This document shows, piece by piece, positions 2,730 through 64,000 of a DNA stretch of 64,000 bases. This DNA comes from Okamejei kenojei. Its lineage: Eukaryota. The stretch is taken from assembly GCA_035221665.1 (NCBI GenBank), contig CM069163.1, positions 16,864,001 through 16,928,000 on the forward strand, written 5' to 3'. A program made the translations under genes and the position numbers. The first letter of the stretch is position 1. Each line of letters starts with the position of its first letter. A model generated the notes under the pieces. That model was not told the origin of the DNA. It saw only the letters and a list, made by a program, of their open reading frames with translations, and did no database searches.

Positions 2730-3089
2730 AGGGCCTGTCCCACTTGGGGGACCTAATCCACGAGTCCAGAAGAGTGCTTTCGACCTTCAAGCTCGAGGGC
2801 ACTCTCCTGGAAAGCCTCGAGCTGGATCGACCGGCCGTGTTGAAACAGCGACCCCATTCCACTGACCTACAAATTTTACTTGTGGAAAATCTTTCAATAT
2901 GCTGAAAGATTTTCCGTGTCCTAGCTGAGGCTGCATGTAGGCGGGAACCTCCCAGGAGTATGAAGGAGAGTTCCCGCCTATGCACCTCATACGATCTCCT
3001 AGGACCTCGTGTCATCCATGCTGCGAATTTGAGTCCAGGGCAAACTCTTCTAAACTGGCAGCTTAGGTCGCCCAAGTGGGACAGGCCCT
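2730..3089. mobile_element. PIF/Harbinger-type MITE, 360 bp (internally deleted relative of 26424-27204, opposite orientation)
   Basis: Perfect 19-bp TIR AGGGCCTGTCCCACTTGGG (2730-2748) / CCCAAGTGGGACAGGCCCT (3071-3089). Right flank TAA, left flank TAC. Both ends align to the element at 26424-27204. Confidence 0.88.
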
Positions 3090-3603
3090 TAAGTATCTTC
3101 CTGTGACGTTACTGCCACATCCCACTGCTCCTCCGCTCCGCCACTGCTCCGGCAACACCTTGTCTGGTGCAAGTGAGGCACGGGAAGGGGAGAAAAGGTA
3201 GTCCACTACCAAATGGTTGAAATACCGGTTCTGGAGCAGTTAACCCAAGACATTTTAAGCAAAGATTCCAGACACTGTTCATGCTTGTTACAGGTTCTTC
3301 AGATTCACACTATCTCTGTCTAACACTAAGTGGCCATGATTTAGGATGCGCTCCGCAAACATCAGAGAGCTTTCGCCCTGTAGCTGACCTCTGCCATCCC
3401 CATCCATTTGCCCTGATATTGACTGTGGGGCTGTCGTGTCTAGGCCCCACACTGAAATACCCTCTCTCAAACTTTCTCACCTCCCCGACCTCATTTTGTC
3501 CCTCCTTAAGTGTCAGTGCCATGTGTTCTCCTGGGTTTCTGTCTGAATCTCACCAGCTATTAGTCAGTGAATTACAGGAAACAGTCTAAATTTCCATAAC
3601 ACC

Positions 3604-4808
3604 TTGTGCGGCGGCACGACTCGCGATGCAGCGGCCCCTACAGCCTGTCTGTCTTTTTTTTTTATTTTTTGTCTAGTTAAATGTAGTTGTTCGTGTTTTT
3701 TTTGTACTGTTTCTAATTGTGTATATGTGGGGGGTGGGGGAAACTTTTAAAATCTCTTCCCTGCACGGGAGACCCAACCTTTTTCCTGACGGGTCTCCGT
3801 TGTCATTGGGGCCTAGCACCGTGGAGCCAGCGGCCTCCGACCGGGACGACCTGGGGGCTCCAGTCACAGAGCCTGCGGAGCTGCGGACTTGCCATCGTGG
3901 GGCTGGCCGGCCTCGGAGCGTGGGGAGCAGTGGTGGCTCGCTGCTGCGGCCCGACTCCGGGGCTCCAGCTCCAGCTCCAGCTGTGGCCCGACTCCGGAGC
4001 TCCAGCTCCAGCTGCGGCCCGACTCCGGAGCTCCAGTTCCAGCTCCAGCTGCGGCCCGACTCCGGAGCTCCAGCTCCAGCTCCAGCTGTGGCCCGACTCC
4101 GGAGCTCCAGCTCCAGCTGCGGCCCGACTCCGGAGCTCCAGTTCCAGCTCCAGCTGCGGCCCGACTCCGGGGCTCCAGTTCCAGCTCCAGCTGCGGCCGG
4201 ACTCCGGGGCTCCACCTCCAGCTCCAGCTGCGGCCCAACTCTGGAGCTCCAGTTCCAGCTCCAGCTGCGGCCCGACTCCGGAGCTCCAGCTCCAGCTGCG
4301 GCCCGACTACGGAGCTCCAGCTCCAGCTGCAGATTACTGCCGGTGGACTGTCTGGATATCGGGAGCTCGCGGGTCCGGGTGGGAGACCGCTCTCCGGAGC
4401 TCCCGCAACACAACTTCTCCAGCCCGTGTCGCGGGGTTGGAACGACCCAGAGCGGGGCCGTACATCGCCTGGCGCGGCTTTAATGGCCGCGGGACATTCC
4501 AGCGCCTGCCGGGGGCTCCAACTTATGACTTTTGGGCCTAGAGCGGGGCCATACATCACCAGGCGCGCCCTCAATGGCCGTGGGACTTAACACCGCCCGC
4601 CTGCGGCTTCGACATCGGGAGAGAAATGGTGCGGGGGAGAGAGAAGAACTTTTCCTTCCATCACAGTGAGGAGGAGATTCACTGTGATGGATGTTTGTGT
4701 GAATTGAATTGTTTGTATGTTTTGTAGGAATTGTTTTGTTTGCATGGCTGTGGAAACAGAGTTTCGTTTGAGCCTCTGAGTTTCGAATGACGTAATATAA
4801 TCTAATCT
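3604..4808 (+). mobile_element. GC/CpG-rich non-autonomous retro-element (SINE-like) with Rex1/Babar-type tail, copy A
   Basis: Shares a T-rich leader, the GGGGGAAAC/stem/GGCCTA core and the TCCATCACAGTGA hairpin with 10523-10930 and 12960-13637. Ends tttcgtttgagcctc...aatgac...aatctaatcta. Confidence 0.7.
3944..4326. repeat. GC-rich minisatellite, 11 units of 31 or 37 bp
   Basis: Unit = CTGCGGCCCGACTCCGGAG + (CTCCAG)2-3. Units 1-3 and 4-6 form a 105-bp higher-order repeat. Confidence 0.95.
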
Positions 4809-5809
4809 ATAGGATGGTCAATGGGAGATCTCTCTGAATTGCCATACAATCTCTTCCATAAATCTCTGTGACATTCAGCATTCACAGTGTTAACACTGCT
4901 GCATTTATTCTGTCCTTCGAGGAGGTCAGTGAGGTGCAGACGCTGAACTCCGGGTGTTGTTGTACTTGTCAATACAATCTGCAGAGAGTGGAGAGATGCG
5001 GCTGGTTCTGTGCAGCTAAGCTTGGCCATCAACAACATGGGCCACTGCCCATTACCAGCCTACTGTCCTTCCACAGCCCTCAGACTTCAGAAAGACATGA
5101 ACCTTTTCTACAACACTCCTTTCTGTAAAACTGAGGGCTTTATCATTAGTTCTGATAAAACATTTAAATGCCTTCTATTTCTGTACAATCATTACTGCTA
5201 AAAATAAGTGAATTTAAATGTTCAATTTTCAATTAACCACGTAAATAGAAATAAAATAAGAAAACAATATTTTGAAGATCATAGCCTTATTTCAGAAACA
5301 GGGAACTTTTTTTTAAAAGAGAGCACAATTTAGCTAAATAATTCTCCAAACTATTCACATTGTTTACACGCGCTTCATTTTAATCAGGTTCCCTTTTAAT
5401 CTCTTCATTTTTTTTCAATTAGGAAAAATGTTGATTGTTTTTATTTGACTTTGTGATGGGATATTAAACAAATAGTGGAATATATTCTCGTATGCTACAG
5501 CTTCAGATGCTTTGAGCGAACAATGCCTTTAATGTCTGATCTCAGTTAATGACCCTCGGCTGCGCTTATCGATGGAATTACTATGTCACTGCTTTGATGT
5601 AAACACTGCTAGAAATGAAAGGTGAACAGTTAATGCTGTATAAAGAAAATGATAATACTCCAGTTAGAGAGTCAGACGTTATTAATGATTTGCCCCTTCA
5701 GGTCTCCCTGTCCACGACCTCACCTATTGTTGAACTTAGCAGATGAGGATGTGGTATGGCAGAGAGAGAGAGATGATTTTACCAAATGCATAACCTCCTG
5801 AGGTGGGAT

Positions 5810-6650
5810 AGAGTCATACAGCATGGAAGCAGGCCCAACTTGTCCATGCCAACCAAGATGCCCCATCTATGCTAGTCCCATCTGCCCACGTGTTGCCCCT
5901 AGACCTCTAATCCTTTCTTATCCATGTACCTGTTAAAATTTATTTGAATTCTTATTATAGTACTTGCTTCAACTACTTCCTCTGGCAGCTCGTTCCATAC
6001 AGCTACCACCCTCTGTGTGAAAAGGTTGTCCCTCAGGTTCCTATTAAAACTTTCCCCTCTCACATTAACCTATGTCTTCTGGTTCTTGATTCTCCTATTC
6101 TGAGTAAAAGACTCTGTGCATTCATCGTATCAATTTCCCTGGTTTTATACACCTCTATAATATCATCCCCCAGCCTTCTGATCGCTAATGTATAAAATCT
6201 GAACCTGCCCAGCCTCTCCCTAGAGCTCACGTCCTCGAGTCCTGGCAACACACTTGTAAATCTTCACTGCGCTCTTTCCAGCTCAATGACATTGTTCCTA
6301 AAGCAGGTTGACCAATTCCTAAGACAATACTTCAAATGTGGTCTTGCTAATGTATTGTACAAATTTAACATAACATCCCAACTTCTACATTCACTACCCT
6401 GACCGATGAAGGCCAATGTACCAAAAGCCTTGTCTACCACCCTATCTAACTGTGCGACCACTTTCAGGAAACTATGTACTTGTATTCTTCGATCTTCTGC
6501 TCTGTGACACTCCCCAGACGCTGCCATTCCCTGTGAAAGTTCTACCCTGGTTTGACTTCCAAAAATGCAACACCTTGCACTTATCTTCATTAAACTCGGT
6601 GAGCAATTCCTCGGCCCACCTGCCTAGCTAATCATAATCTTGCTGTAATT
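5810..6650 (-). mobile_element. CR1-clade (HER1-like) LINE 3' fragment, decayed
   Basis: Minus-strand ORFs give LYNTLARPHLKYC..WS and RRLGDDIIEVYK..SRTRRHRL, the CR1 ORF2 C-terminus. The 3' tail lies near 5810. Confidence 0.9.
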
Positions 6651-9179
6651 AAGTTGTAGCCATGAGTCAGCTCAGGTGAGCTGACTCAGGCTCGAGTTCC
6701 TTCGTGGAGAACAAGACAAAGCCATTCTGCACAACAAACCCATGCTGGTATTTAGGGTCTATTACATGAGTGATGCTGCAGACAAGCCCAACACCAGCTA
6801 CTCTTCATCTATCCTTTCCAGAGTTTTCTTCAGTTCTCTTCTCCCATGTGCATCTATCTCACATCATCAACACTTTTACAGGTACATCCATCTTGTCATA
6901 AAAAGAATTAGGATTAGAAAAATTGGAATATGAAAAAATATTTCACAATTTTAGCTTCAATTGGGAAATCTGGAAAACCATATTATTGGGTACTTAATTT
7001 AGGAATCATCTTATTGTCCTCGATCAGAACACTGATAGTCATGTTATGGTGGCTGTAGGTCATGGCCTGACGAATAATTGTTTATTTAGTTGTGAATTTA
7101 GAAAAATATATTCCACAATGCAAAACTTGTGTAATCTTCGTTTTTTGACAGATGTCATCTATTTGGTGTCTTGAAAGTGACCAACTATCAAATAAAGACC
7201 AAGTCAGTCATCTCACTCTCTCTCTGGATCCCACACCATGCCAGCCAGTTAAGTTCATCAAGTGGTGATGTGTGGCAGTACATAAGGTTGGTGTATTTAT
7301 TTTGTGTATTTTGTCCCATCCCTCTTCAGATCGTCCAAGTCTCATTTCCCAACTCTACACGAGGTAATGCATTTTCAGAACACAGGCAGCATGAGTTAGT
7401 AACAATTATAAGAACCAATATATGGCCATATGTACCCACAAAAATAACATTGTTTTCCTTTCTTCCACCCCCCCTCCCCACCCTCCACCCCGTGATATTT
7501 ACATGCACTACAAAAATAAATTACAACCGGTGAGTCAGCAGCTGAGGTCAGTTGAGCAAAGTTGTATTTATTGACACCTTTTCGGACTCCACATTTTCGG
7601 ACTTCATTTAAGCTAAAATTATATTTGAGTCAGAATAATTTGTAAAACTTCTCTGGTAATGGTTCATTGTTCCTCCATTTAGAGTGAGCTGCACAAACAG
7701 ACCCTTTGGCCCACCTTGTCCATGCCAACCAAGCTGGCCTATTGGGCTTGCCTCATTTGCCTGCATTAGGTCTATGTCTAAAACCTGCCTATCTATACTG
7801 TATATCTGCCCAAACATCTTTGCAAATGTCTTCCTTTGCACCCTTGAGAAGAATTTTGCTAAAATAATCCAGGATTTCTTTCTTTGGTCTTTTCTCGAAC
7901 CTCCAAACATTTAGCCAATTTTTTTTCTTCTCACTCTGTGAAGAAATTACCTCTAATGTTTCATGCTCTGAGTAATAATTTCACATTGATGCCTATTTGT
8001 CATTTCACTAAACTGTCAAGATTATCACTCCCTTTTTACTCCATGAAAGTTTGTTAGACTTGACCTGGGGACCCATTCTAAGTTGTGTTTTGAACTGACA
8101 CCATAACAGAATGCCAACACAAAGAGATTTTATTTGTACACATTGATTTTCTGTAATCTAGAGATAATTACTTGGCAAAACAATGGAAACAAATTCCGCA
8201 GTAACTTTTGAAAAGGAATGTCATAAATCTGCATTTCTTTGTTTCTCCAGAAAAGAATGATGTCCCCAACAGTGGTTAACCCTTTGAAAGGGCTGGCAGA
8301 GGCATGATGGGACAACTGGGTGCTCTCACTACTGCATCATTCTCTGACTCCTGCTGGTGTAAGGTAGGTGTGGGAGTTTTATAGACTCGCGCATTAGCCG
8401 TTTGATGGACCTGGCGGCACGTTTATTGCTGAGGTAATGCAGGGTGAATGCATCCTTATGGAAGGCAGAAACATTGTCATGGGAGGCTACAAGATCAAAG
8501 AAAAAGGACTAATGGAATAAAAAATTGACCAAAATATTATGTTACACACCATCATTCTCAGAGTACTTCAAGTTCACAATTATCAATAATTATCAGTCCA
8601 CTTTCCAGAAACGTCTAACTTTTATCTTTTAATGCTTTCATGTTGATACACAGCAAGTGAATTCCATAGCATAAATATGTCACCATAAACAAGCTAAATA
8701 TCTGTTCCCTTATTGTCCATTTAGCTGGGTGCTCTCTTTTTAATTTTGCCTCATTCATGGATTTTATTTTAAGTTTTACACCTTGTTCACTCCCACTCAG
8801 TCTACTCTCACCTATCCCTTATCTATCTAGCCTTTGAACTAAATGTATCTGTTAAGTACTTAGACAAACCAACTCAAAGCTTTACTTTAAGAGAAAGTAA
8901 ATGAAGACTGCTCCCAGCAGAATCTGTCACCTAACTTTAGCCTTTTGCTCTATTTTTGTAATCAGTATCTGTGCACTTAATGCATTAGGATTACTGTTTA
9001 CCAGTTCCTTGAACCAGCGATGCTGGTTGCATATAAACACATTCACCTCTGCAAAAATTAATTCCAGTCTATTAGAGATCGCTATAATTCACCTTCATTG
9101 ATCCGTGTGTTTTTTTTACACTTTTGGGTCTGTTCTTAAAATAGCGCAAACCTTGCCATTACTTGTTCCTATTCCATTT

Positions 9180-9640
9180 GACATTGCAACAAAATGCATT
9201 TATATAGCACTTGTTAACATTGTCGAGTGTTCCAAGTTACCTCACAGGTATGATAAGAAGCAAAAACTGACACTGAGCCACCTGTATTAGGACTGATGAT
9301 TAATAGCTCGGCCACAGAAGTAGATTTTAAATAGAGCCTTTAGGGAAGAGGCAGTGACTCTGGTTGGGGATCAGAGCTCCTGGCCAATCCTGGTGTAATT
9401 ATAATTGGGGAAACACAGGAGGATAGAATTGAACAATTCGTTCAACTCAGAAGCCTGCCAGGCTGGAGGAGATTAAATAGATAGTGAGAGCAAACTTTGG
9501 AGCAATTTGAAAACAAATACAAGAATTCTAAACCTGAACCATTAATTTACTGGGAATAAGTGAGCTCATGTAACACAAGTAAAGGGTGAAGAGGACTCGG
9601 TGTGAATTGGCAAGCAGATAGCAGAGGTTTATAAAGGGTG
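9180..9640 (-). mobile_element. Ancient L2-like LINE 3' fragment
   Basis: tgcatttatatagcac...ctgacactgagccac; similar to 655-1100. Confidence 0.4.
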
Positions 9641-9652
9641 CGAGATGAAAGG

Positions 9653-9827
9653 GTATGAGATTAGGCTCTTTACATGGTGTCAGAAGTGGGAAAATGCTGG
9701 GGTTAAACACAATCACCATATATAATGGATGGCCTGCTAACCCACTCGGTCCCATGTGGTGGGGCTGTCTTATCCCTCAGAAGGTATTTACATGTAAAGA
9801 GCCTAATCTCATACATGTAAATACCTT
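9653..9827. repeat. Interlocked perfect inverted repeats (24 bp and 16 bp)
   Basis: 9653-9676 is the exact reverse complement of 9791-9814; 9781-9796 is the exact reverse complement of 9812-9827. Confidence 0.9.
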
Positions 9828-10014
9828 AGTCTCACACAGGTTGAAGCACAAGCATCTTTACTGTTCCGGTCTACATCATCTAAGCAGTACATCGCACGTT
9901 CTCACTACTGCTGCTACTGGCAGGCAGTGGGCGAGTTCTTACAGTATAAATGTTATAATTAGGCGGTTTAATTACTAAGCATTCTGATTGGCTAACATGC
10001 AATAGCCTATCTAC

Positions 10015-11000
10015 ACTGGTCATGTTTTGTACTTGGGGAACTGAATACAAAATTAAGATGGTTGTAATTCAGTTATACTGGGCACTGGTGAGACAACAAC
10101 TGTATTACTGTGTACAGTATTGATCTCATAATCTAAGGAAGGGTGTTAGTACATTGGAGCTCGTCAGATGAGACAATTATCTCAAATGAACAGACTGTCT
10201 TGTGAAGAAAGGTTGGACGACTTGATTTTTTTTTTGTAGTGTTTGAAAAAGTGAAAAGGGATGTGATTGAAACGCACTGACAAATGAATGTAGAAAGAAT
10301 AGAACCGGGGCCATGGTTGGAAATAAGAGGCTGCCTTCTAAAAGGCAGAGATGAGGTGATTTTTTTCCCCTCTCATAGGCTTGTGAGCCTTTGGAACTCT
10401 CTTCCTCAAAATCTAATAGAAACAGAGTCCCTGAATATTTTTAAGGCAGATGTAGATAAATTGTTATGCAAGAGAGTCAAAGCGTACTGAGGGTAGGCAG
10501 GAATGTGCAGTTGAGCTTACCCTCAAAGTCAAAGTCAATTTTATTCATCACATGCACCCGAAGGTACAATGCAATGAATTTGCCAGCAGCGACACACTTA
10601 AAAAAGAACACACAATACGCAATAGAAATTAACACAAACATCCACCACAGCATTCTTCACTGGGGTGGAAGGCAACAAAGTTCAGTCAGTCCTCCTTTGT
10701 TCATCCATGGTCGGGGCCATGAACCCTCCGTTGTCGCCGCTACGGATGGCCATATGCACAGGCCCTCTCGTCGGGATGGTCAAAACTCCGACGTCGGGAC
10801 GGTCAAACACACTCCGGGAAAGGCCGCTCCAATTCATGCTGTTAGGCCGCAAGGGAGGCGACATGGAAAAAGTTGCCTCTCCATCGAGGAGGCGACCAAA
10901 AGCAGTTTCCCCTTCCCCCCCCCCCTCACCATATGAGGAATGATCTTATTTAATGCTGAGGCAACCTGATGAGCAGATTGGCTTCCTCCTGCTCCTAATT
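10015..11000 (+). mobile_element. Old CR1 LINE 3' fragment interrupted by copy C element
   Basis: ORF 10284-10490 RLVSLWNSLPQ...IFKADVDKLL. The CR1 3'UTR (aatgatcttatttaatg...cctcctgctcctaatt) resumes after 10930. Confidence 0.8.
10523..10930 (-). mobile_element. GC-rich SINE-like element with Rex1-type tail, copy C (5'-truncated)
   Basis: Minus strand: GGGGAAAC, then stem GAGGCAAC/GTCGCCTC, then GCGGCCTAACA. Tail cattgtaccttcgggtgcatgtgatgaataaaattgactttgactttg. Confidence 0.7.
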
Positions 11001-11714
11001 GTAATGATTGTGGTTTCTTGCTGAAACAGTTAATTAAAGTTTAAAAGTTCCAAGAGGTGTTCCCAAAGTGGACTACAATTTTTTGAAGATTTACTCTTGA
11101 AGCACAAGCCCACAGCCCTTCACCAGTGCGGTGACCTGCAAAATCATTTTAACATCAATCTATAACTTCGGATGAGAGCTGTGCTAAAACTGAAATGATT
11201 AGTCAATAATTTCAGTTTTAGCACAAAGCTTTTAAGTGTGGCGGAGACCTGGAGTGTAGCAATCCCCCTCGGGAAGCAGCAAGTGTCTAGTCAGTGGAAT
11301 CGAAGGAAAGAAACTAGTGCAAAAACCAGAAACAATGTGGCTTTCAGTAGCTCGTAATATTGGAGTAAAGAGTTACTCAAAATTAGGTAGAGAGGGATGA
11401 TGTCATGGACTTTGAAAATATGAGGATGGATGATAAATATATTGTGACAGTTTTATTGAGAAATGCTGTATCCATTGGCAAGGCAATGTCATACTATTTC
11501 TGTTCGGTGTTAAGGATTTGCTAAAGTAGTTGAGCAGAATTGTGTGGCTGACTTGGTGTGAACATGGATCACATGTAGATCAGACCAGGCCGGAAGTGCT
11601 GAATGTCATAAATTAGGTATTTTGACAATCCAGTTGTTTCTTTGTTTCCAATAGCAATGTATGACATCTTTATTAAAATAACTCGGTGAGTTTAAATTCC
11701 TTGGTAGCTAAAAA

Positions 11715-12085
11715 AGGAAGCAGCTGGAGGTACTCAGCAAGTCAAGCAGCATCTGTGGAGGAAAATAGGCCGTCTACGTTTCAGGTCAGGACTCTTCATC
11801 TGATTGAAAGAATGATGGGGAAGTAACCGGTATAAAGAGGTACTGGTGGTGGGTGGGGGGGATGGAGGTGAAGAGGAGCTGATTGGCAGATAACTGTCAA
11901 GTGGGGGAGGGATGTGTAGACAGAGGCCAGGGGATGAGTAGAGAACAAAAGGAGGGAGATGCTGGAATGTTCTGAGAATGGAAGGTGAAGAATGGAACTG
12001 AATGAGGGGTTGTGGCAGATGGAAATAACAGGGGAGGGGTGAAGAATAAAGAAGGAAGGAAATCTAGTGGGGGTGTTGGAAAAAT
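11715..12085 (-). mobile_element. Penelope-like 3' terminal fragment (arm plus purine/pyrimidine-skewed UTR)
   Basis: Arm gctggaggtactcagcaagtcaagcagcatctgtggag...acgtttcaggtcaggactcttcatctga. The minus strand reads CAGATGAAGAGTCCTGACCTGAAACG, a degenerate hammerhead-like core. Confidence 0.65.
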
Positions 12086-12539
12086 AACCAGGGTGACGGA
12101 TAAATTCCACAATGTCCCGATCCTTGGTGAGACTTGAACCCATGGTTCTGGATCTTTACCTCAAGGTTTGGAGGAGCACCCCTTTCATTTAACTTCTGGT
12201 CCTATTCCAATAGGTGAAATGGTCAGAGTTATTCTGAGTTAAGAAAGAAGGTATATTCTTGAGATCATTAAAGGTGGTGGCACAAGTAATCCCAAAAAAA
12301 TGGAAATCAAATTATTCTGGAGACGCTGAATGAGAATAAAATGAGGTAATTTTTATATTTGTACATAATTAGAGAAAATAATTATTTTGGTCATTTCTTT
12401 ATAGACAAATTTAGCTAAAAATGTTCAGCATTGATTCTCCAGAGAATGTAAAGAGTGACATGATAGAGGTTTTCAAGGTTTGAAGATGTGTATAGATTGT
12501 TTTCACTGATCAATGAGATGCTAACAAGCAGGTGTTATT

Positions 12540-12830
12540 CAGGAAGGAGTTGCAGGATTTTGACCCAGGAAGACTCAAGGAATGGTAATGTAGGTCCAGA
12601 TCAGATCAGCGAGTGACTCGGAGAGGATCAGGCAGTCTGGAGCTTTTGTGCGGCTGTTGTGGTGCGGTGAACAACAATTAACTTTGTTCTGGATGGCTCT
12701 GAGGTTCTTGAGTGTTGTTGGAGCCACATCCTCGCAGACAAGTGGAGAGTGTACCATTACACCCTGTTGTGCCTTTATGTTGATCAGAGGCTTTGGGGAA
12801 TCCGAAGCCGGTTAGCAGTAAAATATCCAG
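12540..12830 (-). mobile_element. Ancient non-LTR retrotransposon 3' fragment (same family as 52400-52930, 54985-55250)
   Basis: Reverse complement resembles the 54985-55250 segment (ccccaaagcctct..atcaacataaaggcacaa vs ccccaaagtctctccaccatgtacaaggtacaa). Confidence 0.45.
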
Positions 12831-12959
12831 ACCCTCATCTTACAAGTTCAGCACTCTTTTGATAATCAAATTGGGAAATTGTGCATGTCACTCTTCAATT
12901 TAAAAAGGGCGAGAGAGAGGAATTATGAACCAGTTAGTTTAACATCTATGATCAAGCAT

Positions 12960-13637
12960 TTAGACATAGTCGTACTTTATTTGCCAAGTATGTTTTGCAA
13001 CATATGAGGAATTTGACTTGCCATACAGTCATACTAATAAAAAGCAACAGAACACACAACACACATTTTAACGTAAACATCCACCACAGTGATTCCTCCA
13101 CATTCCTCACTGTGATGGAAGGTGAAAAAAAGTTAAATCTCTTCCCTTCTTTGTCCTCCAGCGGTCGGGGGCCTCTAACCTTCCGTTGACGGGATGATCT
13201 TATTCCCGTAGCCGGCGGCGCGCCTCCACATCGGGGCGATCAAGCTCCTGCATCGGGGGGGAATCTCAGCTCCCCCGTGCCGGGCGATCTACCTCGGGTC
13301 GGGGCTTGTCAAACGTCGTGTGGTTTTTTCCCCGACTCGGTCTCTACTGAGACTGCGAGCTCCTATGTTAAAGTCCACAGGGCGCGGTTAGAGCGTCGAT
13401 CCCAGGCAAGGAATCGGCTCCGCTGGTAAATCCACGCAGTCTGGAGCAAGGCCTCCAGCTCCATGATGTTAGGCCGCAGAGCGACCGGAGACACGACCCG
13501 GAAAACAATCGCATCTCCGGCAAGGTAAGAGATTGAAAAATAAGTTTCCCCCGACCACCCCCCCCCCCCCCCCACATAAAACAAAAACGGAGAACCAACA
13601 CAAACTTTTAAAAAATACTAAAAATAACAAAAAATTA
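12960..13637 (-). mobile_element. GC-rich SINE-like element with Rex1-type tail, copy B
   Basis: Minus strand: T-rich leader, poly-G, GGGGGAAAC, 12-bp stem, GCGGCCTAACATCATGGAGC, hairpin at 13080-13119. Tail aaattcctcatatgttgcaaaacatacttggcaaataaagt. Confidence 0.75.
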
Positions 13638-14212
13638 CTGGGATTTACGATTATCCCACTGATTTCACCATTTCACCCTACTTGCCTTGGGAGTTTACTG
13701 TTAAATCACTATTGTACCGCACCCGGCCCCATAACCTCCTCCCTGAGATGCGGTACCGAGTGCAGAACATTGCCTCTCCATTGGACAGTGACTCGAGTGA
13801 GATCTAAACCAGCTCTTTGTACTTCAGCCACCTTGGAATGAAGGCCAGCATTCCACTGGCCTTTTGAATACTTTATACCTGCTGTATTTTTGCCATCTAT
13901 ACTTTGCACATGGATAACCCAAATTTCCGCTTCTTCTCAACATTCCTCAAAGATTCTCTGATTTATTTCTACAATTCATCCTTAATTTTCCCACACTGAA
14001 TTCCATTAGTACTCTTATATGAATTCAATATATCTGCTTCTTGGCATCATGCTCCCTCCCACATTACCAATATCTTATGTACAACATTAGATGTACAACT
14101 CTTCATTCCTTTGCTATATTAATGCAAAAAAATTGAGAAAAAGCTCAATCGCAATTTGCTAATAAGGTTATGCACCATCTTACCTCACTTTATTTATTTA
14201 ATCTCCTAACCT

Positions 14213-19039: not shown

Positions 19040-20160
19040 TGCTATTGAGTAACATCAGTGGTTGGCAAGTTGCTGGAGAAGATTCAGAGGAACAGGATTT
19101 ATGTTCACTTAGAAAGGCGGGGTCATATTAGGAGCAGTAAGTTCAGTTTTGTGCAGAGGTGATCAATCTGATTGAGTTTTTGGGGAGTTATCCAAAGAGA
19201 TTGATGAAAACAGGACAGTAGCTATTCCAGAAGCTTAAGGCACAGTGTTCAGAGGCGTGTTGATCAGGTGAAGTCGAGTTTATTGTCACACGCACAAGTA
19301 CAGTAAGGTACAGTACAATGAAATTCATGCTTGCAGCAAGATCCTCGCATAGTGACTCCAACAACACAGTGACTGTATCCAATTTCAGATGGGAAATGTT
19401 TAATAAGTGGTGCTCGCAGGAATCCATGCAGAAAACTTTGCTGTTTGTAATCTTTGTATAAATGACTTAAATAAAAATCTATGGAGGTATGTAGACAAAA
19501 AAACAGGCGGAGTCGCAGATAATGAAGAAAGTTGTTTAACGTTGTTTTGTGAGGCATTGATCAGGTGGAGAGTTGGGCAGAGCAGTGGCAGATGGACTTT
19601 AGATAAGTACATCTAGAACAAATGACATGGACCTTAGGAGCATTGATGTACAGAGAGTCCTTGGGGTGCAAGTCCACAGCTCTCTGGAAGTGATGATACC
19701 GGTTTGTAGGGTTGTCAAAATTGTCTATGCTCGCTTATCCTCGTGGGCCGAGACATTGAGTATAAGACTTGGAACGTCATGTTAAACATGTACAAAACAT
19801 TGGTTAGATTGCACTTAGAGTATCCTGTACTGTTCCAGTAGCTGCATTGCAGGAAGGATGTTGTACCAATAGTGAGGGTGCAGAAGAGATTCACCATGAT
19901 GTTGCTAGAAAGGAGGGCTAAAGTTTTAAAAATGATTAGACAGGCTGGTTTTATTCTCACAGGAATGTATGAGGCTGAAGGATAATCTTATGCAGGATTA
20001 TAAAATTATGTGGGGCACGGATATGTTAGAGAGTCAGAGTCTTTTTCCCAGGATAGTGAACTCCAGAACTAGAGAGCATAGGTTTAAAATGAGGAGAGAG
20101 AAATTTGAAGAGTAACGAGGGGTAAGCTTTTCACTCAGAACATGGTGAATATTTGGAATT
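19040..20160 (+). mobile_element. Old CR1 LINE (RT to 3' region) with nested Rex1 tail at ~19265-19335
   Basis: Decayed RT motifs (..LCINDL..; atgtacaaaacattggttagattgcacttagagtat = MYKTLVRLHLEY; agaactagagagcataggtttaaa = RTREHRFK). Confidence 0.75.
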
Positions 20161-20382
20161 ATCAGCCAGAGCTGAGAGCTTCAAGTTCCGTGATGTTCAT
20201 ATTGCCAATAATCTGTTGTGGACCAACCACATTAATGCGATGGTCAGGAAAGCACACCAACACCTCTCCTTCCTCAGGAGTCAGAAGAAATTTGGCATAT
20301 CTCCAATGACTCGTACAAACTTCTACAGATGCACCATAGAAAACATACTGTTGAGTTGCATCACAGCTTGGTTTGGGAACAG
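20160..20382 (+). mobile_element. Rex1/Babar LINE fragment
   Basis: ESFKFRDVHIANNLLWTNHINAMVRKAHQHLSFLR..KKFG..TNFYRCTIENILLSCITAWFGN. Confidence 0.88.
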
Positions 20383-20384
20383 CG

Positions 20385-20590
20385 AACAGCAATCCCCACA
20401 CATTAACACTATCTTACGCACTCGGGACAATTTACATTTATACCAAGCGAATGAACCTACAGACCTGTAGGTGTTTGGAGTGTGGGAGGGGAGAACGTAT
20501 ACTCCGAAAAGACAGCACCTGTGCTCAGGGTTGAACCCGGGACCTGGGGCTCTGGCACTGTAAGGCAGCAACTCTACCGCTGCACCACCT
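20385..20590 (-). mobile_element. HE1-type SINE, partial
   Basis: Colinear with 16960-17205; A box (gcagcggtagagttgctgcc) and B box (gggttcaaccc) on the minus strand. Confidence 0.85.
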
Positions 20591-24374: not shown

Positions 24375-24755
24375 AGATAAACTGCAAGAGATTACCCAGA
24401 CAATGGGTTTGAAAATTATCAATGATCCACATCATCCTGACAATGCACTCATTTCACTCCTGCCATTGGGACGAAAGTACAAGAGTCTGAAAAACCATGA
24501 CCACCAGGTTCAAAAAAAGCTACTTCCCAACAACTATCAGACTTTGGAACACTGCACAACACTAACCTCAACAGTGACCGTGGGCTGGTTTTGGTTGCAC
24601 TAATGACATAGGGGTTGCTTTGCACTAGTATTGGCATTATTAATTTAAAGAATTGTTGTTTATTATATATTATTTGTGTATGTTGTGATTTCAGGCCTCT
24701 TATGCTGCTGCGTGTAAGAATTTCATTGTTGTGTTGTTGCATATGACAATTACGC
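24375..24755 (+). mobile_element. Rex1/Babar LINE 3' end
   Basis: IINDPHHPDNALISLLPLGRKYKSL; tail gtaagaatttcattgtt...atatgacaat. Confidence 0.8.
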
Positions 24756-25017
24756 ACTCTTAATATTAGAACAAAAGCTGTGAAATTTGGACAATGAGGG
24801 AGTGAGAACAAACAAAGTAATGATAAGAGTGTAGGTCCTGGCCAGCAGCTCAAGCTGTAGTAATGTGAACCTTCCTGCATGACGTAAACTGGTGAACCGG
24901 TTCCCCCCACCTTCCCTGGGCACCTGGCAGAACACAGACTCAGCTCTGTGCGCTAAGGCTCAAGTAACTGTGTGCATCTTCTGTTCAAAATCATCCGTAT
25001 GTGATACAGCAGCAGCT

Positions 25018-25988
25018 TTAGGTTAAGGTTTATTGTTGTCATGTGTACCGAGGTACTGTGAAAAGCTTTGTTTTGCATGTTATCAAAACAGTTCAGATAC
25101 AGCATACATAAATACAATTAAGTTAAACTCAAGTACAATAGATTGAGCAAAGAGTAAGATGCAAAGCGAGGAATATAGTATCTCAGCATTGTAGCGCATC
25201 TGTTCTGTAGACAAAGTCCAATGTCCTCAATAGAGTAGAAATAAGTCAGACGGTACCCGAGCTTATCAAAAGACTGTCCAGAAGCCTGAGGGGAAGAAGC
25301 TGTTCCTGAAATTGGTGGTGCACACTTTCAAGCTTCTGCATCTGCTGTCGGATGGGAGCTGGGAGAAGAAGGAATGACTGGGGTGGGATGTCTTTGATTA
25401 TGTTGGCTGCTTTTCCAAGGCAGTGTGAAGTGTAGATAGAATCAGTGTCAGGTCTGTGTGATTGACTGGGCTACACCTACAATTCTCTGCAATTTCTTGT
25501 GGACTTGGGCAGAGCTGTTTCCAAACCAAGCTGTGACGCAAGCCAACCGTATGAAGACAGACCAAATTCCCTCAGTCCCTTCAGGAACGTAGAGGCATTG
25601 ATGTGCCTTCTTGGCTGTTGCATCAATGTGATTGGTCTATGAAGATCACGGATGATATTAACAACAAGGAACTTGAAGTGCTCGACCAATTCCACTTCTG
25701 TACTATTGATGCTGATTTGGGCATGTACTCTACCATGTTTCCTGAAGCCGATTACTTACTCCTTCATCTTGCTGACATTGAGGGAGAGGCTATTGTCTTG
25801 ACACCATGTCACGAATCTCTATGTCCTTCCTGTACTCTGTCTTCTCATTGTTTGTGAATCGGCCCACCACAGTGGTATCATGCATAAACTTGCAGATGGA
25901 GTTCGAGCTGAATTTGGCTGTACAATCGTGACTGTGCAGGGAGTATAGTAGGGGACTGACAACGCATCCTCCTTTAGTACCTGCGACC
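25018..25988 (-). mobile_element. Rex1/Babar LINE, ~1 kb 3' fragment with decayed RT
   Basis: GCVVSPLLYSLHSHDCTAKFSSNSICKFMHDTTVVG (decayed KFADDTT) and VEHFKFLVVNI. Tail cctcggtacacatgacaacaataaacc. Confidence 0.88.
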
Positions 25989-26240: not shown

Positions 26241-26423
26241 CCTCTGATCGTCCAAATTCCATTTATTCGTACTGAACCATCTGTTCTACCCGCCCTGGAG
26301 GAAGAAAGACCTGAGGCAAGGAATAATCACAATGCCTTGACCTTAAGTTGGTAGCTGGTGGAGTTGCACTACCCTACGTCAGTGTGACATCTCAGGGAGC
26401 TGCTGACTCTGATTTCAGTGTAA

Positions 26424-27025
26424 AGGGGCTGTCCCACTGCGGCGACCTAATCTGCGAGTTTAGAAGAGTTTGCCCTTGACTCAAACTTGCAGCATGGTCG
26501 ACACGTGGTCCTAGGAGGTTCTAAGAGGTAAATGAAACTCTCCATGCTCGAGGGAAGTTCCTGAATACTCGTGGCCTCAGTTTGGTCAAGGAAAATTTTT
26601 CAGCGTGTTGAAAAAATTTCCGCGAGTAAAAATTGGTCAGCATGCTTCTTTTGAACTCGTTGTGCAGTGGAGTGAGGTCGTTATGTAGTTATAGGCAGTC
26701 GAGGGCAGCCATAGGCAATCGCCTTCGCCGACCGGGCATTTTAATTGGCTCATTGGAGTTTTCAGGACCAAGGAAAACCGACCTGTAATGTAAAGTGCCC
26801 GCTAAACTTTATTATAAGTTGGCTGGCTACTTAAAAGTGTCTCCACTCCTTCTCCCCCCTTCTCTCCTCTGCTCATCCCTTCTCTTCCCTCCTCTCCCCC
26901 CCTCCCCCTCTCCGTGCTCCCTAAAGGATTTACCGTACACTGTGCATCTGTCTTTTACCTTCCTGTTCATCGCGGGTGTAATTTCAGACAGCGCTCCCCC
27001 GCTTTCTCTGACCCCCGCCTTTGCG

Positions 27026-27079
<54 letters not shown>

Positions 27080-27204
27080 ACAGTCGATCCGGCTCGCGGT
27101 TTCATCGCTGACGGTCGATCCAGCTCGAGGTGTTTCAGGCGAGTGCCCTCGAGCTTGAAGGTCGAAGCCAGTCGCTGAAAGGTCGCATCAGTGGGACAGG
27201 CCCT
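26424..27204. mobile_element. PIF/Harbinger-type MITE, 781 bp
   Basis: TIR AGGGGCTGTCCCACTG / CAGTGGGACAGGCCCT with TAA on both sides (26421-26423, 27205-27207). Contains (TG)n; no transposase. Confidence 0.92.
27027..27076. repeat. (TG)n microsatellite
   Basis: About 25 perfect TG units inside the MITE. Confidence 0.97.
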
Positions 27205-27329
27205 TAAGGCACCTCTCATCCAAACCAACAGCATTGACAACAGAAACTGTTGTCCCAGACTCCACAACAATTTAGGTTGCCAGTGATGATTCTTTTCCTC
27301 AGCATTTCTTTAATCTATTTTTTATCAGC

Positions 27330-28280
27330 ATTTCTTTAATCTATTTTTTAATCTATATATTGATGATCTGTCTAAACAATTGAAAGCCTGTAACACTGGG
27401 TGCGTGATTGGTAATATTTTAGTGAACCATATTATGTATGCAGATGATCTTGTGGTCTTTAGTCCATCTAGCGCTGGTCTCCAGCAGCTCCTTACTGCAT
27501 GTTCCGTGTATGGTTTGGAACATGACATTAAATATAATGCTAGTAAGAGTGCTGTTATGGTCTTTGGAAGCAAAGAGGATAAAAGCCTAAAATATCCGGA
27601 TTTTAAATTGTCTGACAACAATCTTAGTGTCTGTAATAAGATAAAATATCTAGGGCATATTATTACAGAACAAATGACAGATGATGAGGATATTTATAGA
27701 CAACGATGCATGCTGTATATACAGGCGAATATCCTATAAATTTGGTGCGTGTGCAGATGTGGTGAAGATGTCGCTATTTAGAGCATACTGCACACCCCTC
27801 CACACTGCGCACCTGTGGTCGAATTATTTAAAGACAAGTATGCAGAGACTAAAGGTTGCATATAACAATGCCATGAGAACACTGCTAAGGCAACCAAGAT
27901 GGTGTAGTGCCAGTAATATGTTTGTGGCTGCAGGAGTCAGTACTTTAGAAGCTATCCTAAGACACCACATGTATAAATTCATTTGCAGGATAAATGACTC
28001 TAAAAATGTGCTTATTGTGGCCTTGACAAATATAAGGGTTAGCACTACACGCTACGAATCCCAGTTGTGGAGACACTGGTATCGTTGTCTCGTTGTACGA
28101 CATTGATCATTTTTTACTCTGGATTTTTAACTTAAGTATTGTGGGTTTTTTTTTAAATATATAAATTATGATGCTTTTATGTGATTTACTATGATTTTAT
28201 ATATATTTATGATATTTGATATGCAATGCATTTTTTAATGTAATGTTGCCCCTTGTCTGGACCTTGAGTCCGTAATAAAG

Positions 28281-28354: not shown

Positions 28355-28435
28355 TACAATATAATTACTCTTCCTGCACTTCTGTTCTGCTTTTGGTAAA
28401 ATATAACAATTTTTTCCAGTGGAATTCATGTTTGC

Positions 28436-29070
28436 TCCGTAACAAGAGGATTTCAGTATAGGTGTAGAGAGGTTCTTCTGCAGCTGTATAGGGCTCTGGT
28501 GAGACCACATCTGGAGTATTGCGTACAGTTTTGGTCTCCTAATTTGAGGAAGGACATCCTTGTGATTGAGGCAGTGCAGCGTAGGTTCACAAGATTGATC
28601 CCTGGGATGGCGGGACTGTCATATGAGGAAAGATTGAAAAGACTAGGCTTGTATTCACTGGAGTTTAGAAGAATGAGGGGGGATCTTATAGAAACATATA
28701 CAATTATAAAAGGACTGGACAAGCTAGACGCAGGAAAAATGTTCCCAATGTTGGGCAAGTCCAGAACCAGGGGCCACAGTCTTAGAATAAAGGGGAGGCC
28801 ATTTAAGACTGAGGTGAGAAAAAACGTTTTCACCCAGAGACTTGTGAATTTGTGGAATTCCCTGCCACAGAAGGCAGTGGAGGCCAAAACATTGGATGGA
28901 TTTAAGAGAGAGTTATATAGAGCTCTAGGGGCTAGTGGAATCAAGGGATATGGGGAGAAGGCAGGCACGGGTTATTGATTGGGGACGATCAGCCATGATC
29001 ACAATGGATGGCGGTGCCGGCTCGAAGGGCTGAATGGCCTCCTCCTGCACCTATTTTCTATGTTTCTATG
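28436..29070 (+). mobile_element. Young CR1 LINE, 5'-truncated, uninterrupted ORF2 C-terminus
   Basis: VLLQLYRALVRPHLEYCVQFWSPNLRKDI...RRMRGDLIETY...SRTRGHSLRIKG...VNLWNSLP, stop at 28978. Tail ctattttctatgtttctatg. Confidence 0.96.
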
Positions 29071-43032: not shown

Positions 43033-43330
43033 CATGAACACAAAGTGCTAGAGTAACTCAGTGGATCTGACATCATCTATGGAGGACATGGATAGGTGAC
43101 GTTTCATGTCGGGACCCTTCCTCAGACTCAGTCTAAAAAAGGGTCTCGACCCAAAACGTCGCCTATCCATTTCCTCCAGAGATGGCGCCTGACCCACTGA
43201 GTTACTCCAGCACTTTGTGTTCTATGCAAGATTGCAACTTTTGCATTAACAACAGATAATCCTCTGACATTTTCGCCACCTCAAACGGGATCCCACCACT
43301 GGCCACATCTTCTGCAGTTCCTTGTGTCTC
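43033..43330. mobile_element. Palindromic PLE-arm element (two 93-bp head-to-head arms) with a PLE ORF piece in its tail
   Basis: 43036-43128 is an imperfect reverse complement of 43130-43222. 43250-43312 translates QQIIL*HFRHLKRDPTTGHIF, a Penelope-like RT-to-GIY-YIG linker. Confidence 0.88.
43095..43128 (-). ncRNA. Minimal hammerhead-ribozyme-like motif (PLE type), probably decayed
   Basis: Minus strand AGU CUGAGGA A GGGUC CC GACAU GAAA CGUC ACC: CUGANGA box, short stem II, GAAA box and GUC site. Stem II is damaged in this copy. Confidence 0.55.
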
Positions 43331-51377: not shown

Positions 51378-51822
51378 GTTAGGTTTGAGTTTAACTTATT
51401 GTCACATGTACTGAGGTACAGTGAAAAGCTTTTGTTGCTTGCTAACCAGTCCGCGGAAAGAAAATACATTATTACAATCGAGCCATCCACAGTGCACAGA
51501 TACATGACAAAAGGGAATAACATGGATAACGTTTAGTACAAGGTAAAGTCCGATCAAAGATAATCCAATGAGGTAGACAGTAGTTCAGAACTGTTCTCTG
51601 GATGTTGGTAGCATGGTTTTGTTGCCTGACAACAGCTGGGAGGAAACTGTCCCTGAATCTGGAGGTGTGCATTTTCTTACTTTTATACCTTTTGCCCACA
51701 ATTGGGGAAGGGGAGAAGATGGAGTGGGCATGGTGCGACTCATCCTTGATTATGCTGGTGGCCTTGCTGAGACAGAGTGAGGTGTAAATGGAGTCAATGG
51801 AAGGGAGGTTGGTTTGTGTGAT
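51378..51822 (-). mobile_element. Rex1/Babar LINE 3' end
   Basis: GKRYKSKKMHTSRFRDSFLPAVVRQ; tail cttttcactgtacctcagtacatgtgacaataa. Confidence 0.85.
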
Positions 51823-52399
51823 TCAGCGACTGGTTGCTCACAAGTGAGTCAGTGAGATTCACACCGAGGATACGTGTTGTGGTATCAGCATAAATAGGAC
51901 TGTGACCTTATGTGAGTTCATACCTTGGTCTGTCACATCATGACAAAGTTAACTATATTTATCCTTATATGGACTTGGACTAGATGCATAGTCATTCCTC
52001 ATTATTACAGCCTTGCAGAAAAGCAGTGAGATACTATGACCTATCCAACCGTTATCCTTTCAAAGTTTGATGCACTCTTTAAAAAAACATCTTTCAGGAG
52101 GGAAGAAAACCCTTTTTCCAGGCAATCAGTCAATCTCTGGCATTTGGCAAAAGTATTTGCTCTGTCACTGGTTCCCACCATGCTTCCTGTGTGTTGAAAC
52201 TATTTAAGCTTGAGGTCCTGTATGGGAGACTGTGGCCTTGATTGGGCAATATCTCAGCACTGGAGTACGACATATGAGGCTGATGAAACAAATCCAATCT
52301 ATCTGAAGACCACCTCATCGGGGGATTTTCATTCATCACAGATTCATGGAACATGTTATTAACAGTGCAATCAGGTAGCACTTTCCAACTGCTCACGAT

Positions 52400-56484: not shown

Positions 56485-56594
56485 TTAACATGATTACATT
56501 TAAATATTTAAATTATCTAAAGAAAATCATGAATTGAGCTTCTTGCAGTGCTGAGCAGAGTGATGGTGGATGTTCTGTTTCTCTTTCAAGATGG

Positions 56595-57056
56595 ATGTTC
56601 AAGTAGTAAACACTGCCCAGTCCATCATCGGCTCTGACCTTCCTTCCATCGAGGGGATCTATCACAGTCGCTGCCACAAAAAGGCTGGCAGCATCATCAA
56701 GGACCCAAACCACCCTGGCCACACACCCATCTCCCTGCTACTTTCAGGTAGAAGGTACAGGAGCCTGTGGACTGCAACAACCAGGTTCAGGAACAGCTAC
56801 TTCCCCACAGCCATCAGGCTATTAAACCTGGCTCGGACAAAACTCTGAACATTAATACCCCTTTATCTGTTATTTGCACTTCATCAATTTAATTTATTCA
56901 TTCATGTGTGTACTTACGTATATAATGGTATATGGACACACTGATCTCTTCTGTAGTCAATGCCTACTATGTTCTGTTGTGCTAAGCAAATAAATAATTT
57001 CATTGTCCTGTCAGGGACACATGACAATAAACTCTTTTGACTTTGACTTTGACTTC
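56595..57056 (+). mobile_element. Rex1/Babar LINE 3' end, well preserved
   Basis: QVVNTAQSIIGSDLPSIEGIYHSRCHKKAGSIIKDPNHPGH..ISLLLSGRRYRSL..TTRFRNSYFPTAIRLLN; tail atgacaataaa(ctttga)n. Confidence 0.93.
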
Positions 57057-59184: not shown

Positions 59185-59604
59185 AGAATTTCATAAGTTA
59201 TAGAATTAGGCCATTCGGCCCATCGAGTCTACTCCGCCATTCAATCATGGCTGATCTCTGCCTCCAAATCCCATTTTCCTGTTTTCTCCCCATAACCCTT
59301 GACACCCGTTCTAATCAAGAATTTGTCTATCTCTGCTTTAAAAATATCCACGGACGTGGCCTCCACAGCCCTCTGTGGCAATGAGTTCCACAGATTAACT
59401 ACCCTCTGACTAAAGAAGTTCCTCCTCACCTCCTTTCTAAAAGAGCGCCCTTTAATTCTGAGATTATGACCTCTGGTCCTAGATTCTCCCACCAGTGGAA
59501 ACATCCTTTCCATATCCACTCTATCTATGCCTTTCATTATTCTATAAGTTTCAATGAGGTCCCCCCTCAACCTTCTAGCCTCCAGTGAGTAGAGGCCCAG
59601 TGCT
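59185..59604 (-). mobile_element. Young CR1 LINE 3' fragment
   Basis: ORF 59241-59570 RGDLIETYRIMKGIDRVD...SRTRGHNLRIKG...RVVNLWNSLPQRAVEA. Confidence 0.95.
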
Positions 59605-59680
59605 GAAAAGTCATTTGTCCATTACCTCCACAGATGCTGCTTGGCCCGCTGAGTTCCTCCAGCACTTAGTGTTTTGCTCT
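59605..59680 (+). mobile_element. PLE terminal arm
   Basis: gtcatttgtccattacctccacagatgctgcttggcccgctgagttcctccagca. Confidence 0.75.
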
Positions 59681-60071
59681 TTAATAGCTTAAGCCAGTTA
59701 GCGAGTATAGAATCTCTACTCTGCCACCAAAACAGACCGGACTTAGATGCCAAAGAACAATGAAGTAATGCTCTGAGTTTTATAAACACAACTGGAATGG
59801 GTTCAGGCAAGAGGCTGATGTACATCAGACTCAAGGTGAGGGTGACGTCCACCATTCTCCAAAAATGAGTGGTGAGAAATCCCCGCTTTTAAATTATACT
59901 TAATTTAATCTCTGAAAGCTGTGAGGCAATTTGAAATATAATTACTGTTAATTGTGGCCATCAATTTCTCTAGAACTCAAAATTGTTTCTTGGAATGATC
60001 ATGACACAACAGTGGCTCACTGACGACTGGTGAGTCTGATCCCCTGTGATTACCTTCCATTGACATTGCCT

Positions 60072-60560
60072 TTATTATTGCGTCATGTACTGAGATACGG
60101 AGAAAAGCTTTTGTTTACTTCCTATCCAGTACAATCATACCATTCACGAGTACAATCAAACCATACACAAGTACAACAGAGGAAAATGCAGAATATATTG
60201 TTGCAGCATTGTAGCATTACAGCCATGGAGAAAAAGTGCAAGGCCCGCAATGAGGTGGGTTGGAAGATCGGGACTACACCTTAGCTTATGGCAGCAGCGT
60301 TCAGTAGTTTGATAATACCAGGAAAAAAACTGTTCGTGAATCTGGTGGTACATTCTTTCATGTTTTTGTATCCTCTGCCCAATGAGAGAGGGAATAACTG
60401 AGGTGTTAGAGCGTCGTAATTATGTTGGCTACTTTCCCAAGGCAGCGTTAAGTGTACGTGGAGTTGATGTGGGGAGCCTGGTCTGTGTGATCGACTGGGC
60501 TACATCCACAAGTCTCTGCAATTTGATTCTTCCCAGACTGAGCTGTGATGTATCCTAATC
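60072..60560 (-). mobile_element. Rex1/Babar LINE 3' end, decayed
   Basis: Colinear with 25030-25545. Confidence 0.8.
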
Positions 60561-61230: not shown

Positions 61231-61563
61231 CATAGAAACATAGAAAATAGGTGCAGGAGGGGCCATTCGGCCCTTCGAGCCAGCACCGCCATTCATTGTG
61301 ATCATGGCTGATCGTCCCCTATCAATAACCCGTGCCTGCCTTCTCCCCATATCCCTTGATTCCACTAGCCCCTAGAGCTCTATCTAACTCTCTCTTAAAT
61401 CCATCCAGTGACTTGGCCTCCACTGCCCTCTGTGGCAGGGAATTCCGTAAATTCACAACTCTCTGGGTGAAAACGGTTTTTCTCACCTCAGTCTTAAATT
61501 ACCTCCCCTTTATTCTAAGATTGTGGCCCCTGGTTCTGGACTCGCCCCACATTGGGAACATTT
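61231..61563 (-). mobile_element. Young CR1 3' end, same subfamily as 28436-29070
   Basis: Near-identical reverse complement of 28738-29070, including the CATAGAAACATAGAAAATAGG tail. Confidence 0.95.
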
Positions 61564-63859: not shown

Positions 63860-64000
63860 TTTCTGCCTCAGAGGGTGGTGGAGGCCGGATTAAGAGAGAG
63901 CTAGATAGGGCTCTTAAAGATAGCAGAGTCAGGGTATGTGGGGAGGTGGCAGGAACGGGGTACTGACTGTGGATGATCAGCCATGATCACATTGAATGGT
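63860..64000 (+). mobile_element. Young CR1 3' end with internal deletion (runs off the window)
   Basis: tctgcctcagagggtggtggaggcc...aagagagagctagatagggctct...gatcagccatgatcacattgaatgg; similar to 28860-29010. Confidence 0.9.

Follow-up and report, generated by a model that had tools for sequence, protein, structure and literature searches.

Three non-coding repeats at this locus carry one and the same short core, which raises the question of what keeps it conserved and what it could do. The role of conserved middle parts in non-autonomous retroposons is an open question, and their origin is called "enigmatic" in the available text of one source (PMC5786205). In the window, that is, the whole 64,000-nt stretch of Okamejei kenojei DNA that was analysed, the cores of elements A, B and C were found at 3736-3828 (+), 13458-13552 (-) and 10824-10912 (-), where an earlier sequence-only reading had placed them. 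A gapped pattern of a G-run with GGGAAAC, a purine arm and TTTTCC matched three times in the window while 0.02 matches were expected and 100 shuffles gave one match at most; this excess is optimistic because the pattern was derived from the three copies themselves. The 11-nt word GSGGCCTARCA, presented in that reading as a conserved part of the core, was alone not above chance (3 found versus 2.23 expected with one mismatch allowed). TGGAGC was present in all three copies as described, but its position was not constant, being 5 nt farther downstream in C than in A and B. A sequence profile of the three cores found no fourth copy in the 64-kb window, and degenerate copies of the TARCA..TGGAGC segment recur inside A at 3885 and 4583. 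Our reading, to which we give a probability of about one half, is that the core is a hairpin module in three non-coding repeats, conserved via paired letter changes and predicted to pair with a 3' block, and that the closed fold is likely an RNA handle for borrowing the reverse transcriptase of a Rex1-type LINE. The core described earlier is likely half of the structure, its spacer being predicted to pair with a second conserved block close to the 3' end.

Element A (3610-4810, +) is apparently full length and runs from a short GC-rich head through a T-rich tract, the core, a GC-rich middle with a VNTR and a 3' block to a LINE-type tail, whose end was read from the sequence at short TAATC repeats. 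A minisatellite with 11 copies of a 37 bp GC-rich unit (3943-4332, +) lies within the middle that would be looped out, and the same middle has a 72-nt direct repeat of 79% identity (4446-4608). Element B (12965-13634, -) is high-copy from 13634, with the T-rich tract first, and its 3' end was taken from sequence. Element C (10523-10930, -) begins at the G-run, is probably 5'-truncated and has TGACTT repeats at its end. Near the 3' ends of A, B and C there is a second shared block, while the tails are LINE-type and unlike each other. Over 3500-4000, the depth of A (summed contigs of four public runs) was 11-54 in the flank, climbed to 8,000-66,000 at 3602-3618 and exceeded 50,000 farther in, the overall range from about 3610 on being 10^4-10^6. 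The sharp rise at 3602-3620 indicates a fixed start of the A family near 3610, and loose contig ends at the start gave no consensus (agreement 0.43-0.52). In three DNA-type runs, the depth of B was 9,000-113,000 at 13600-13639 versus 13-112 beyond 13640, and the contig depth over its core reached 1.6 million. Summed contig depth is no copy number, and it is the thousand-fold step at both starts that indicates two high-copy families. Between 39 and 56% of A's words were present in runs of at least five organisms; the RNA runs X17-X20 contained 7-20% of them, and X17, the one used for depth, was judged probably DNA. The flank upstream of B (13640-13700) is single-copy and common to two other organisms, so the insertion of B predates their split, and the flank of A is likewise present in three other runs, which makes its insertion likewise old. 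No target-site duplications were found, just 5-7-nt matches away from the element ends.

The tRNA search over the elements was negative and A boxes were not found either, in agreement with the earlier statement that no tRNA A/B boxes were seen, but B does have one loose B-box-like 9-mer. Runs of at least five T occur four times in A, seven times in B and twice in C, and polymerase III is unlikely because so many T-runs would stop it. A SINE with a polymerase III head was rejected, as there is no tRNA-, 5S- or 7SL-derived head and the T-runs are internal. The observed/expected CpG ratio was 0.72-1.0 in the elements versus 0.36 in the window.

The central hairpin, H1, spans 3768-3798 (+) in A, where it has 11 bp in the family and a 9-nt loop (3779-3787) with TTTTCC, and its pair probability in the whole-element fold was 0.99. 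In B it lies at 13484-13521 (-), an 11-bp core (13487-13518) being extended to 15 bp, and in C at 10852-10882 (-), with G-C at pairs 6 and 7 and two A-C mismatches. The stems had been described as differing in sequence while still pairing, and they do pair so: 8 bp in A, 12 bp with two G-U in B, and 8 positions with one A-C mismatch in C. Yet the A and B copies in the window hold private letters, and the family-majority stems are of 11 bp. Most copies of the A family have G at 3776 (92-95% of depth, in all four runs) and T at 3789 (99%), which gives 11 Watson-Crick pairs. In the B family, 13492 is A (95-99%) and 13497 mostly A (60-80%), and the stem has 10 Watson-Crick pairs and one G-U; the B copy has three G-U in its 11-pair stem, of which pair 7 alone is a family feature. 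These family letters come from 40 of 70 variant rows for A and 40 of 99 for B, and the variants are unphased. When the two family majorities were compared, 6 of the 22 stem letters differed, and they formed exactly three whole pairs of the 11, both sides changing each time: pairs 6, 7 and 11 are C-G, C-G and C-G in the A family and U-A, G-U and U-A in the B family. The chance that six changes fall as three pairs is 0.0022, which supports the earlier proposal of a selected RNA fold. The single copy C has G-C, G-C and C-G at these positions, and so adds yet another pair type to two of the three. The G-U letters of pair 7 were kept in all three B-like translated Logan fragments, and this pair would be A-C on the antisense strand, thus favouring a sense-strand fold. 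Co-folds of the sense strand were also more stable than those of the antisense strand, by 10 (A), 19 (B) and 4 kcal/mol (C). We conclude that H1 is under selection as a fold of the sense strand. Taken singly, the cores had ordinary folding energies (z of +1.10 in A, -1.55 in B and +0.53 in C), so the support for the fold is covariation, not stability.

Two further hairpins were recognized. H2 (3810-3835, + in A; 13450-13475, - in B) consists of GGCC/GGCC closing the conserved TARCA..TGGAGC segment; its four pairs are all present in A, B and C and invariant, and a palindromic helix that never varies gives no covariation signal either way. H3 belongs to the shared 3' block and has 13 Watson-Crick pairs in A (4657-4691, +) and 13 pairs with one U-G in B (13080-13119, -), while C (10641-10669, -) has C-G at the pair in question. 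It covaries at this one pair (pair 5), which is U-A in A, U-G in B and C-G in C. That H1 and H3 form on the sense strand is strongly supported.

What is new here is a predicted long-range helix, LR, between the spacer of the core and a purine block near the 3' end. The pyrimidine spacer can pair with this block just ahead of H3, 0.2-0.9 kb downstream of the core. In A, all 14 positions of 3753-3766 (+) pair with 4629-4642 (+), two of them as G-U; in B, 13522-13534 (-) forms 12 of 13 pairs with 13136-13148 (-), with one A-G mismatch; in C, 10887-10900 (-) makes 14 pairs with 10681-10696 (-), with two single-base bulges. When each spacer was scanned along its own element, LR ranked best of 949 windows in A, best of 457 in B and third of 272 in C, and the register was the same in all three. 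Among 2000 shuffles each, the observed duplex energy was reached by 1 (A), 233 (B) and 82 (C), so that LR in B alone was not significant; the combined Fisher value was 4e-4, for three elements that are related by descent and an LR zone picked after A was seen. The cognate assignment of spacers to blocks was the best of the six permutations, and where A (in the last four LR pairs) or C has letters of its own, each strand matches the other. The spacers of A and B pair poorly with the C block (-7.9 and -8.8), and the B spacer pairs more strongly with the A block (-17.2) than with its own (-14.3). All four common variants of the 5' strand among those listed (3756, 3764, 13531 and 13533) still pair as G-U, and C-to-U and A-to-G changes always look tolerated in such counts. 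The 3' strands, and with them the covariation of LR, were read from single copies.

The strength of LR differed by element, being strong in A, weak in B and ambiguous in C. Its probability in two-strand co-folds was 0.98 in A and 0.82 in B, and the C co-fold preferred another pairing between the halves that opens H1. In C, one 9-mer occurs twice, at 10887-10895 and 10854-10862 (-), on either side of the 5' arm of H1, an arm to which 8 nt of the 3' block are complementary too; C can therefore adopt two folds between its halves, the alternative one being helped by the 9-nt duplication. LR was absent from the whole-element minimum-energy folds of all three elements, and forcing it cost 1.7 (A), 12.5 (B) and 5.7 kcal/mol (C). 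A nested helix between the G-run and the spacer, returned by RNAalifold, was invariant or rich in G-U, competes with LR and was not favoured. On balance, we hold that LR probably exists.

A pseudoknot had also been suggested, with the TTTTCC loop of H1 pairing to the conserved GGAAA upstream. Its candidate 5' strands are the G-run with GGGAAAC at 3736-3744 (+) in A, GGGGAAAC at 13544-13551 (-) in B, which makes 7 bp with the loop including one G-U, and GGGGAAAC at 10905-10912 (-) in C. The suggestion stands insofar as 5-7 bp are possible in all three copies, with bare duplexes of -6.1 (A), -7.6 (B) and -5.8 kcal/mol (C), but a two-sided change is not seen in any of them: GGGAAAC is invariant in A, B and C, the fourth pair is G-C in the A family and G-U in B and C, and the variation is one-sided throughout (G-C/G-U/A-U). 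The pairing survives two minor variants, C-to-U at 3785 (9-17%) and G-to-A at 13548 (3-16%), and the loop U that it needs differs in two of the three Logan fragments, as seen at the protein level. The GGGAAAC strand of A has other partners as well, namely the 3' U-tract (-4.0 kcal/mol) and its own spacer (-8.7 kcal/mol), and it can extend LR via the U-tract at 4650-4656 with a probability of 0.68, as given by a folding method that does not allow for pseudoknots. We hold the pseudoknot as tentative, its existence being slightly less probable than its absence.

The conserved words could instead act as DNA, for instance in an internal polymerase II promoter, and the stems could have been kept paired by template-switch repair of inverted repeats and not by selection on RNA. 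GGAAA and TTTCC are presumably one transcription-factor half-site of NFAT/Rel/ETS type on opposite strands. GGGAAAC and the TARCA..TGGAGC segment are indeed conserved as sequence, free of covariation; the segment recurs in degenerate form at 3885 and 4583 in A; the elements are CpG-rich; and the exact 9-nt duplication in C suggests template switching. However, such an origin does not agree with G-U pairs at the family level, with the asymmetry between sense and antisense strands or with covariation in two separate hairpins, and a 14-bp match over 860 nt that includes G-U pairs is unexpected from local template switching. We regard this explanation as unlikely.

A role in translation was among the functions proposed earlier, and the core might be an IRES-like fold or a -1 frameshift signal, inherited with a parent LINE's 5' UTR and kept for ribosome docking. 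GGGAAAC is a classic slippery heptamer; in the elements a heptamer of this type is followed by structure, GTG or ATG occurs in good context downstream of the core, and the three copies share one open frame across it (1 in 9 by chance). Against this, one-base spacer deletions made up 4-23% of depth in the A family and 11-24% in the B family, and 4-base indels were seen after TGGAGC. A search of eight element frames gave no Pfam family at a meaningful score, and a protein-family search of the element reading gave 0 hits. A profile search of 1.84 billion proteins gave eight hits, of which three were unnamed translations of B-like copies with one or two members, four were repetitive unrelated proteins, and the fifth of the remainder was likewise counted as not B-like. 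A protein reading of the elements was rejected on the frame-breaking indels together with the lack of a protein family, and so was the -1 frameshift signal, for which the heptamer is present but there is no ORF and indels are tolerated. As A, B and C are without an ORF, the proposed translation signal found no support, and we consider it distinctly improbable.

Protection of the 3' end by an ENE-like structure would place U-tracts on both sides just outside LR, where they would grip the poly(A) tail as a triple helix. An ENE raises the mobility of the Arabidopsis element Evade, and according to the available text a U-rich internal loop closed by adjacent G-C pairs is essential in it (PMC12501189). 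U-rich tracts flank LR on both strands in all three elements; however, when the co-folds were set against that description, the tracts formed no clean U-rich internal loop with adjacent G-C closure (PMC12501189). The 5' U4 of A pairs with AGAA, Rfam gave no match, and an ENE-like role is very unlikely here.

The remaining function named earlier, a self-cleaving ribozyme, would have to be of an undescribed or rewired class and has hardly any probability: the CC-UA(A/G)CA ... UGGAG segment, which we take to resemble the twister L1 loop, speaks for it, and against it there were no Rfam ribozyme hits even at E 10, no hammerhead core, a start of the A family that lies about 120 nt before the shared core and, among the contig ends listed, no clustering of 5' ends at that core. 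Individual classes failed as well. For the hammerhead, rewired types included, GAAA is present and CUGANGA is absent on both strands of A, B and C; for an HDV-like ribozyme there was no Rfam hit, the core lies about 120 nt inside A and the topology, compared by eye, is unlike the consensus of a nested double pseudoknot at the element's 5' end with a catalytic C in J4/2; for twister, judged by a consensus in which an L1 internal loop and P4/L4 form the pseudoknots T1 and T2, only L1-like words were seen, with no P4/L4, a P2 that would close on a 1-8 nt loop and no Rfam hit. The earlier statement that no named family could be matched agrees with Rfam, which gave the window 0 hits at gathering level. 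With E values as high as 10 admitted, 3500-14000 gave nine hits, 3600-3900 three and 13400-13700 one; all were far below the cut-off, none was a ribozyme and none was meaningful. In pattern scans, viral contigs matched neither the core nor the 3' block, and prokaryote genomes gave 0 relatives. In metagenomes, 52 loci matched the core pattern, none of which had the hairpin or any similarity to the window, and these matches are put down to chance.

We return to the two-part RNA fold and the LINE on which it may depend. A LINE 3' fragment at 56564-57052 (+), which we take to be of Rex1/Babar type from its C-terminal motif, has an end that resembles the tail of C and is a candidate partner type; a related fragment at 20126-20467 carries PF09004. 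The C tail matched the end of the former (56992-57052) at 71% over 62 nt (E 3e-4) with the same TGACTT repeats. The A tail matched another Rex1 3' UTR weakly (E 0.007), and a profile of five Rex1 tails found C weakly at E 0.19 and did not match A or B. The window has five Rex1/Babar-type ORF ends with short 3' UTRs (24415-24769, 25017-25452, 51380-51834, 56564-57052 and 60061-60421) and at least three additional lone Rex1 tails (57716, 31530 and 49304), with no full-length Rex1; none of the five 3' UTRs carries the core or H3, so a LINE origin of the fold is conjectural. For Rex1, the available text of one source gives a 3' UTR that is conserved and a terminal repeat that is short (PMC6274825). 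Rays are among the groups with the highest Rex1 coverage, Rex1 is without ORF1 and is the CR1-group LINE most often horizontally transferred (PMC13343379); in the available text of that source, the word non-autonomous does not occur.

A, B and C, which may already be annotated as a repeat family in Repbase or Dfam, are best read as Rex1-dependent ORF-less retroposons with a two-part cis-acting RNA fold and a variable middle looped out. Several species carry A and B as high-copy families that have neither an ORF nor a tRNA head. Their transcription would use RNA polymerase II and start at an internal, CpG-rich promoter, and the sense strand would then form H1 and H3, as is strongly supported. 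The pyrimidine spacer and the purine block ahead of H3 are predicted to pair over 13-14 bp, and LR would loop out a middle of about 790 nt in A, 300 nt in B and 125 nt in C, which would be free to vary. H1 (11-15 bp) and LR are of similar length, so H1 could fold back along LR to GGGAAAC, where the UUUUCC loop may meet it in a candidate pseudoknot clasp. By analogy with R2 and Ty1, such a compact two-ended fold may bring H3, the LINE-type tail and the 5' module close together, which may help the LINE (Rex1) protein to load in trans or the RNA to survive, whatever the tail of the family. If LR is real, it explains how conservation of the ends goes together with a middle of anything from about 125 to 790 nt; it would also be a compact cis-signal that loads RNA cargo onto a single-ORF Rex1 enzyme. 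If local hairpins alone hold, the elements form a repeat family that has been described little or not at all, and their structured body is an ordinary one. With a conserved body, natural compensatory changes and an explicit structure model that can be mutated, the role of such middle parts becomes testable here. A wider proposal, which we hold as doubtful, is a cartilaginous-fish superfamily of Rex1-dependent polymerase II retroposons united by a two-part RNA machine of LR and pseudoknot clasp, with a free cargo loop of any length and swappable LINE tails; it would be a portable trans-copying signal of a vertebrate LINE, possibly derived from end-to-end cyclization of the parent LINE RNA.

Several known systems resemble this arrangement in part. 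Like bipartite non-autonomous LINEs, as far as the available text describes them, A, B and C have no ORF, no small-RNA head and a 3' tail that may be of LINE type, and they share the likely use of polymerase II and, in family A, a fixed 5' end (PMC5786205). The sources listed there for the ORF-less bipartite kind are RTE, Ingi, Vingi and R2, and "Rex" occurs 0 times in that text. The elements here differ from those in the same text by a putatively Rex1-like tail, by a large GC-rich middle between the ends, and by three families that have unlike tails and one two-part fold (PMC5786205). The SINE superfamilies CORE, V, Deu and Meta, in the same available text, likewise have a conserved body with differing heads and tails; in A, B and C, however, there is no tRNA, 5S or 7SL head, and the body is in two blocks and conserved as pairing, not as sequence (PMC5786205). 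The pseudoknot-hinge-stem of the R2 3' UTR is, in the available texts, a non-LTR retrotransposon's cis-element, conserved in shape and bound by the element's protein; it occupies the final 65-68 nt of its element, which is autonomous, and was proven via structure and compensatory mutants (PMC12180492, PMC12222951). Unlike it, the fold in A, B and C is internal, two-part, predicted and in non-autonomous elements, and R2 serves as a working model for function. Ty1, as presented in the available text, likewise has 5'-3' long-range pairing (CYC5/CYC3) and a 5' pseudoknot in a retroelement RNA, but it belongs to the LTR elements, is primed by tRNA, undergoes strand transfer and has no sequence relation to A, B and C (PMC7969010). 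A, B and C work like an ORF-less bipartite non-autonomous LINE and are candidate members of that class, the tails of A and B being not firmly matched. SVA-type elements are also non-autonomous and polymerase II-transcribed, with a GC-rich VNTR between conserved ends, and are primate elements driven by L1 with Alu-like and HERV-derived ends. Element A resembles them in its VNTR between conserved ends, which is absent from B and C. Literature searches over mostly open-access papers returned no description of these elements or their fold, and no paper on bipartite nonautonomous LINEs of Rex1 type.

The window as a whole is vertebrate DNA rich in repeats, among them fragments from several LINE clades. 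Further LINE 3' fragments lie at 28400-29039, 59241-59621, 61261-61563 and 63890-63999, which we take to be of CR1/L2 type; 28737-29039 and 61261-61563 are 94% alike, indicating that this family was recently active. A reverse-transcriptase fragment at 27314-28106 (RVT_1, E 1.8e-11) is broken by a frameshift, and its C-terminus is unlike those of the Rex1 and CR1-type fragments. Related repeat copies stand in opposite orientation at 2772-3090 and 26423-27173, each interrupted or nested. Two short-repeat copies placed head to head at 43036-43222 make a 93-bp inverted repeat with a 1-nt gap, and at 62603-62983 there is a MITE-like inverted repeat whose 112-nt arms are 92% complementary.
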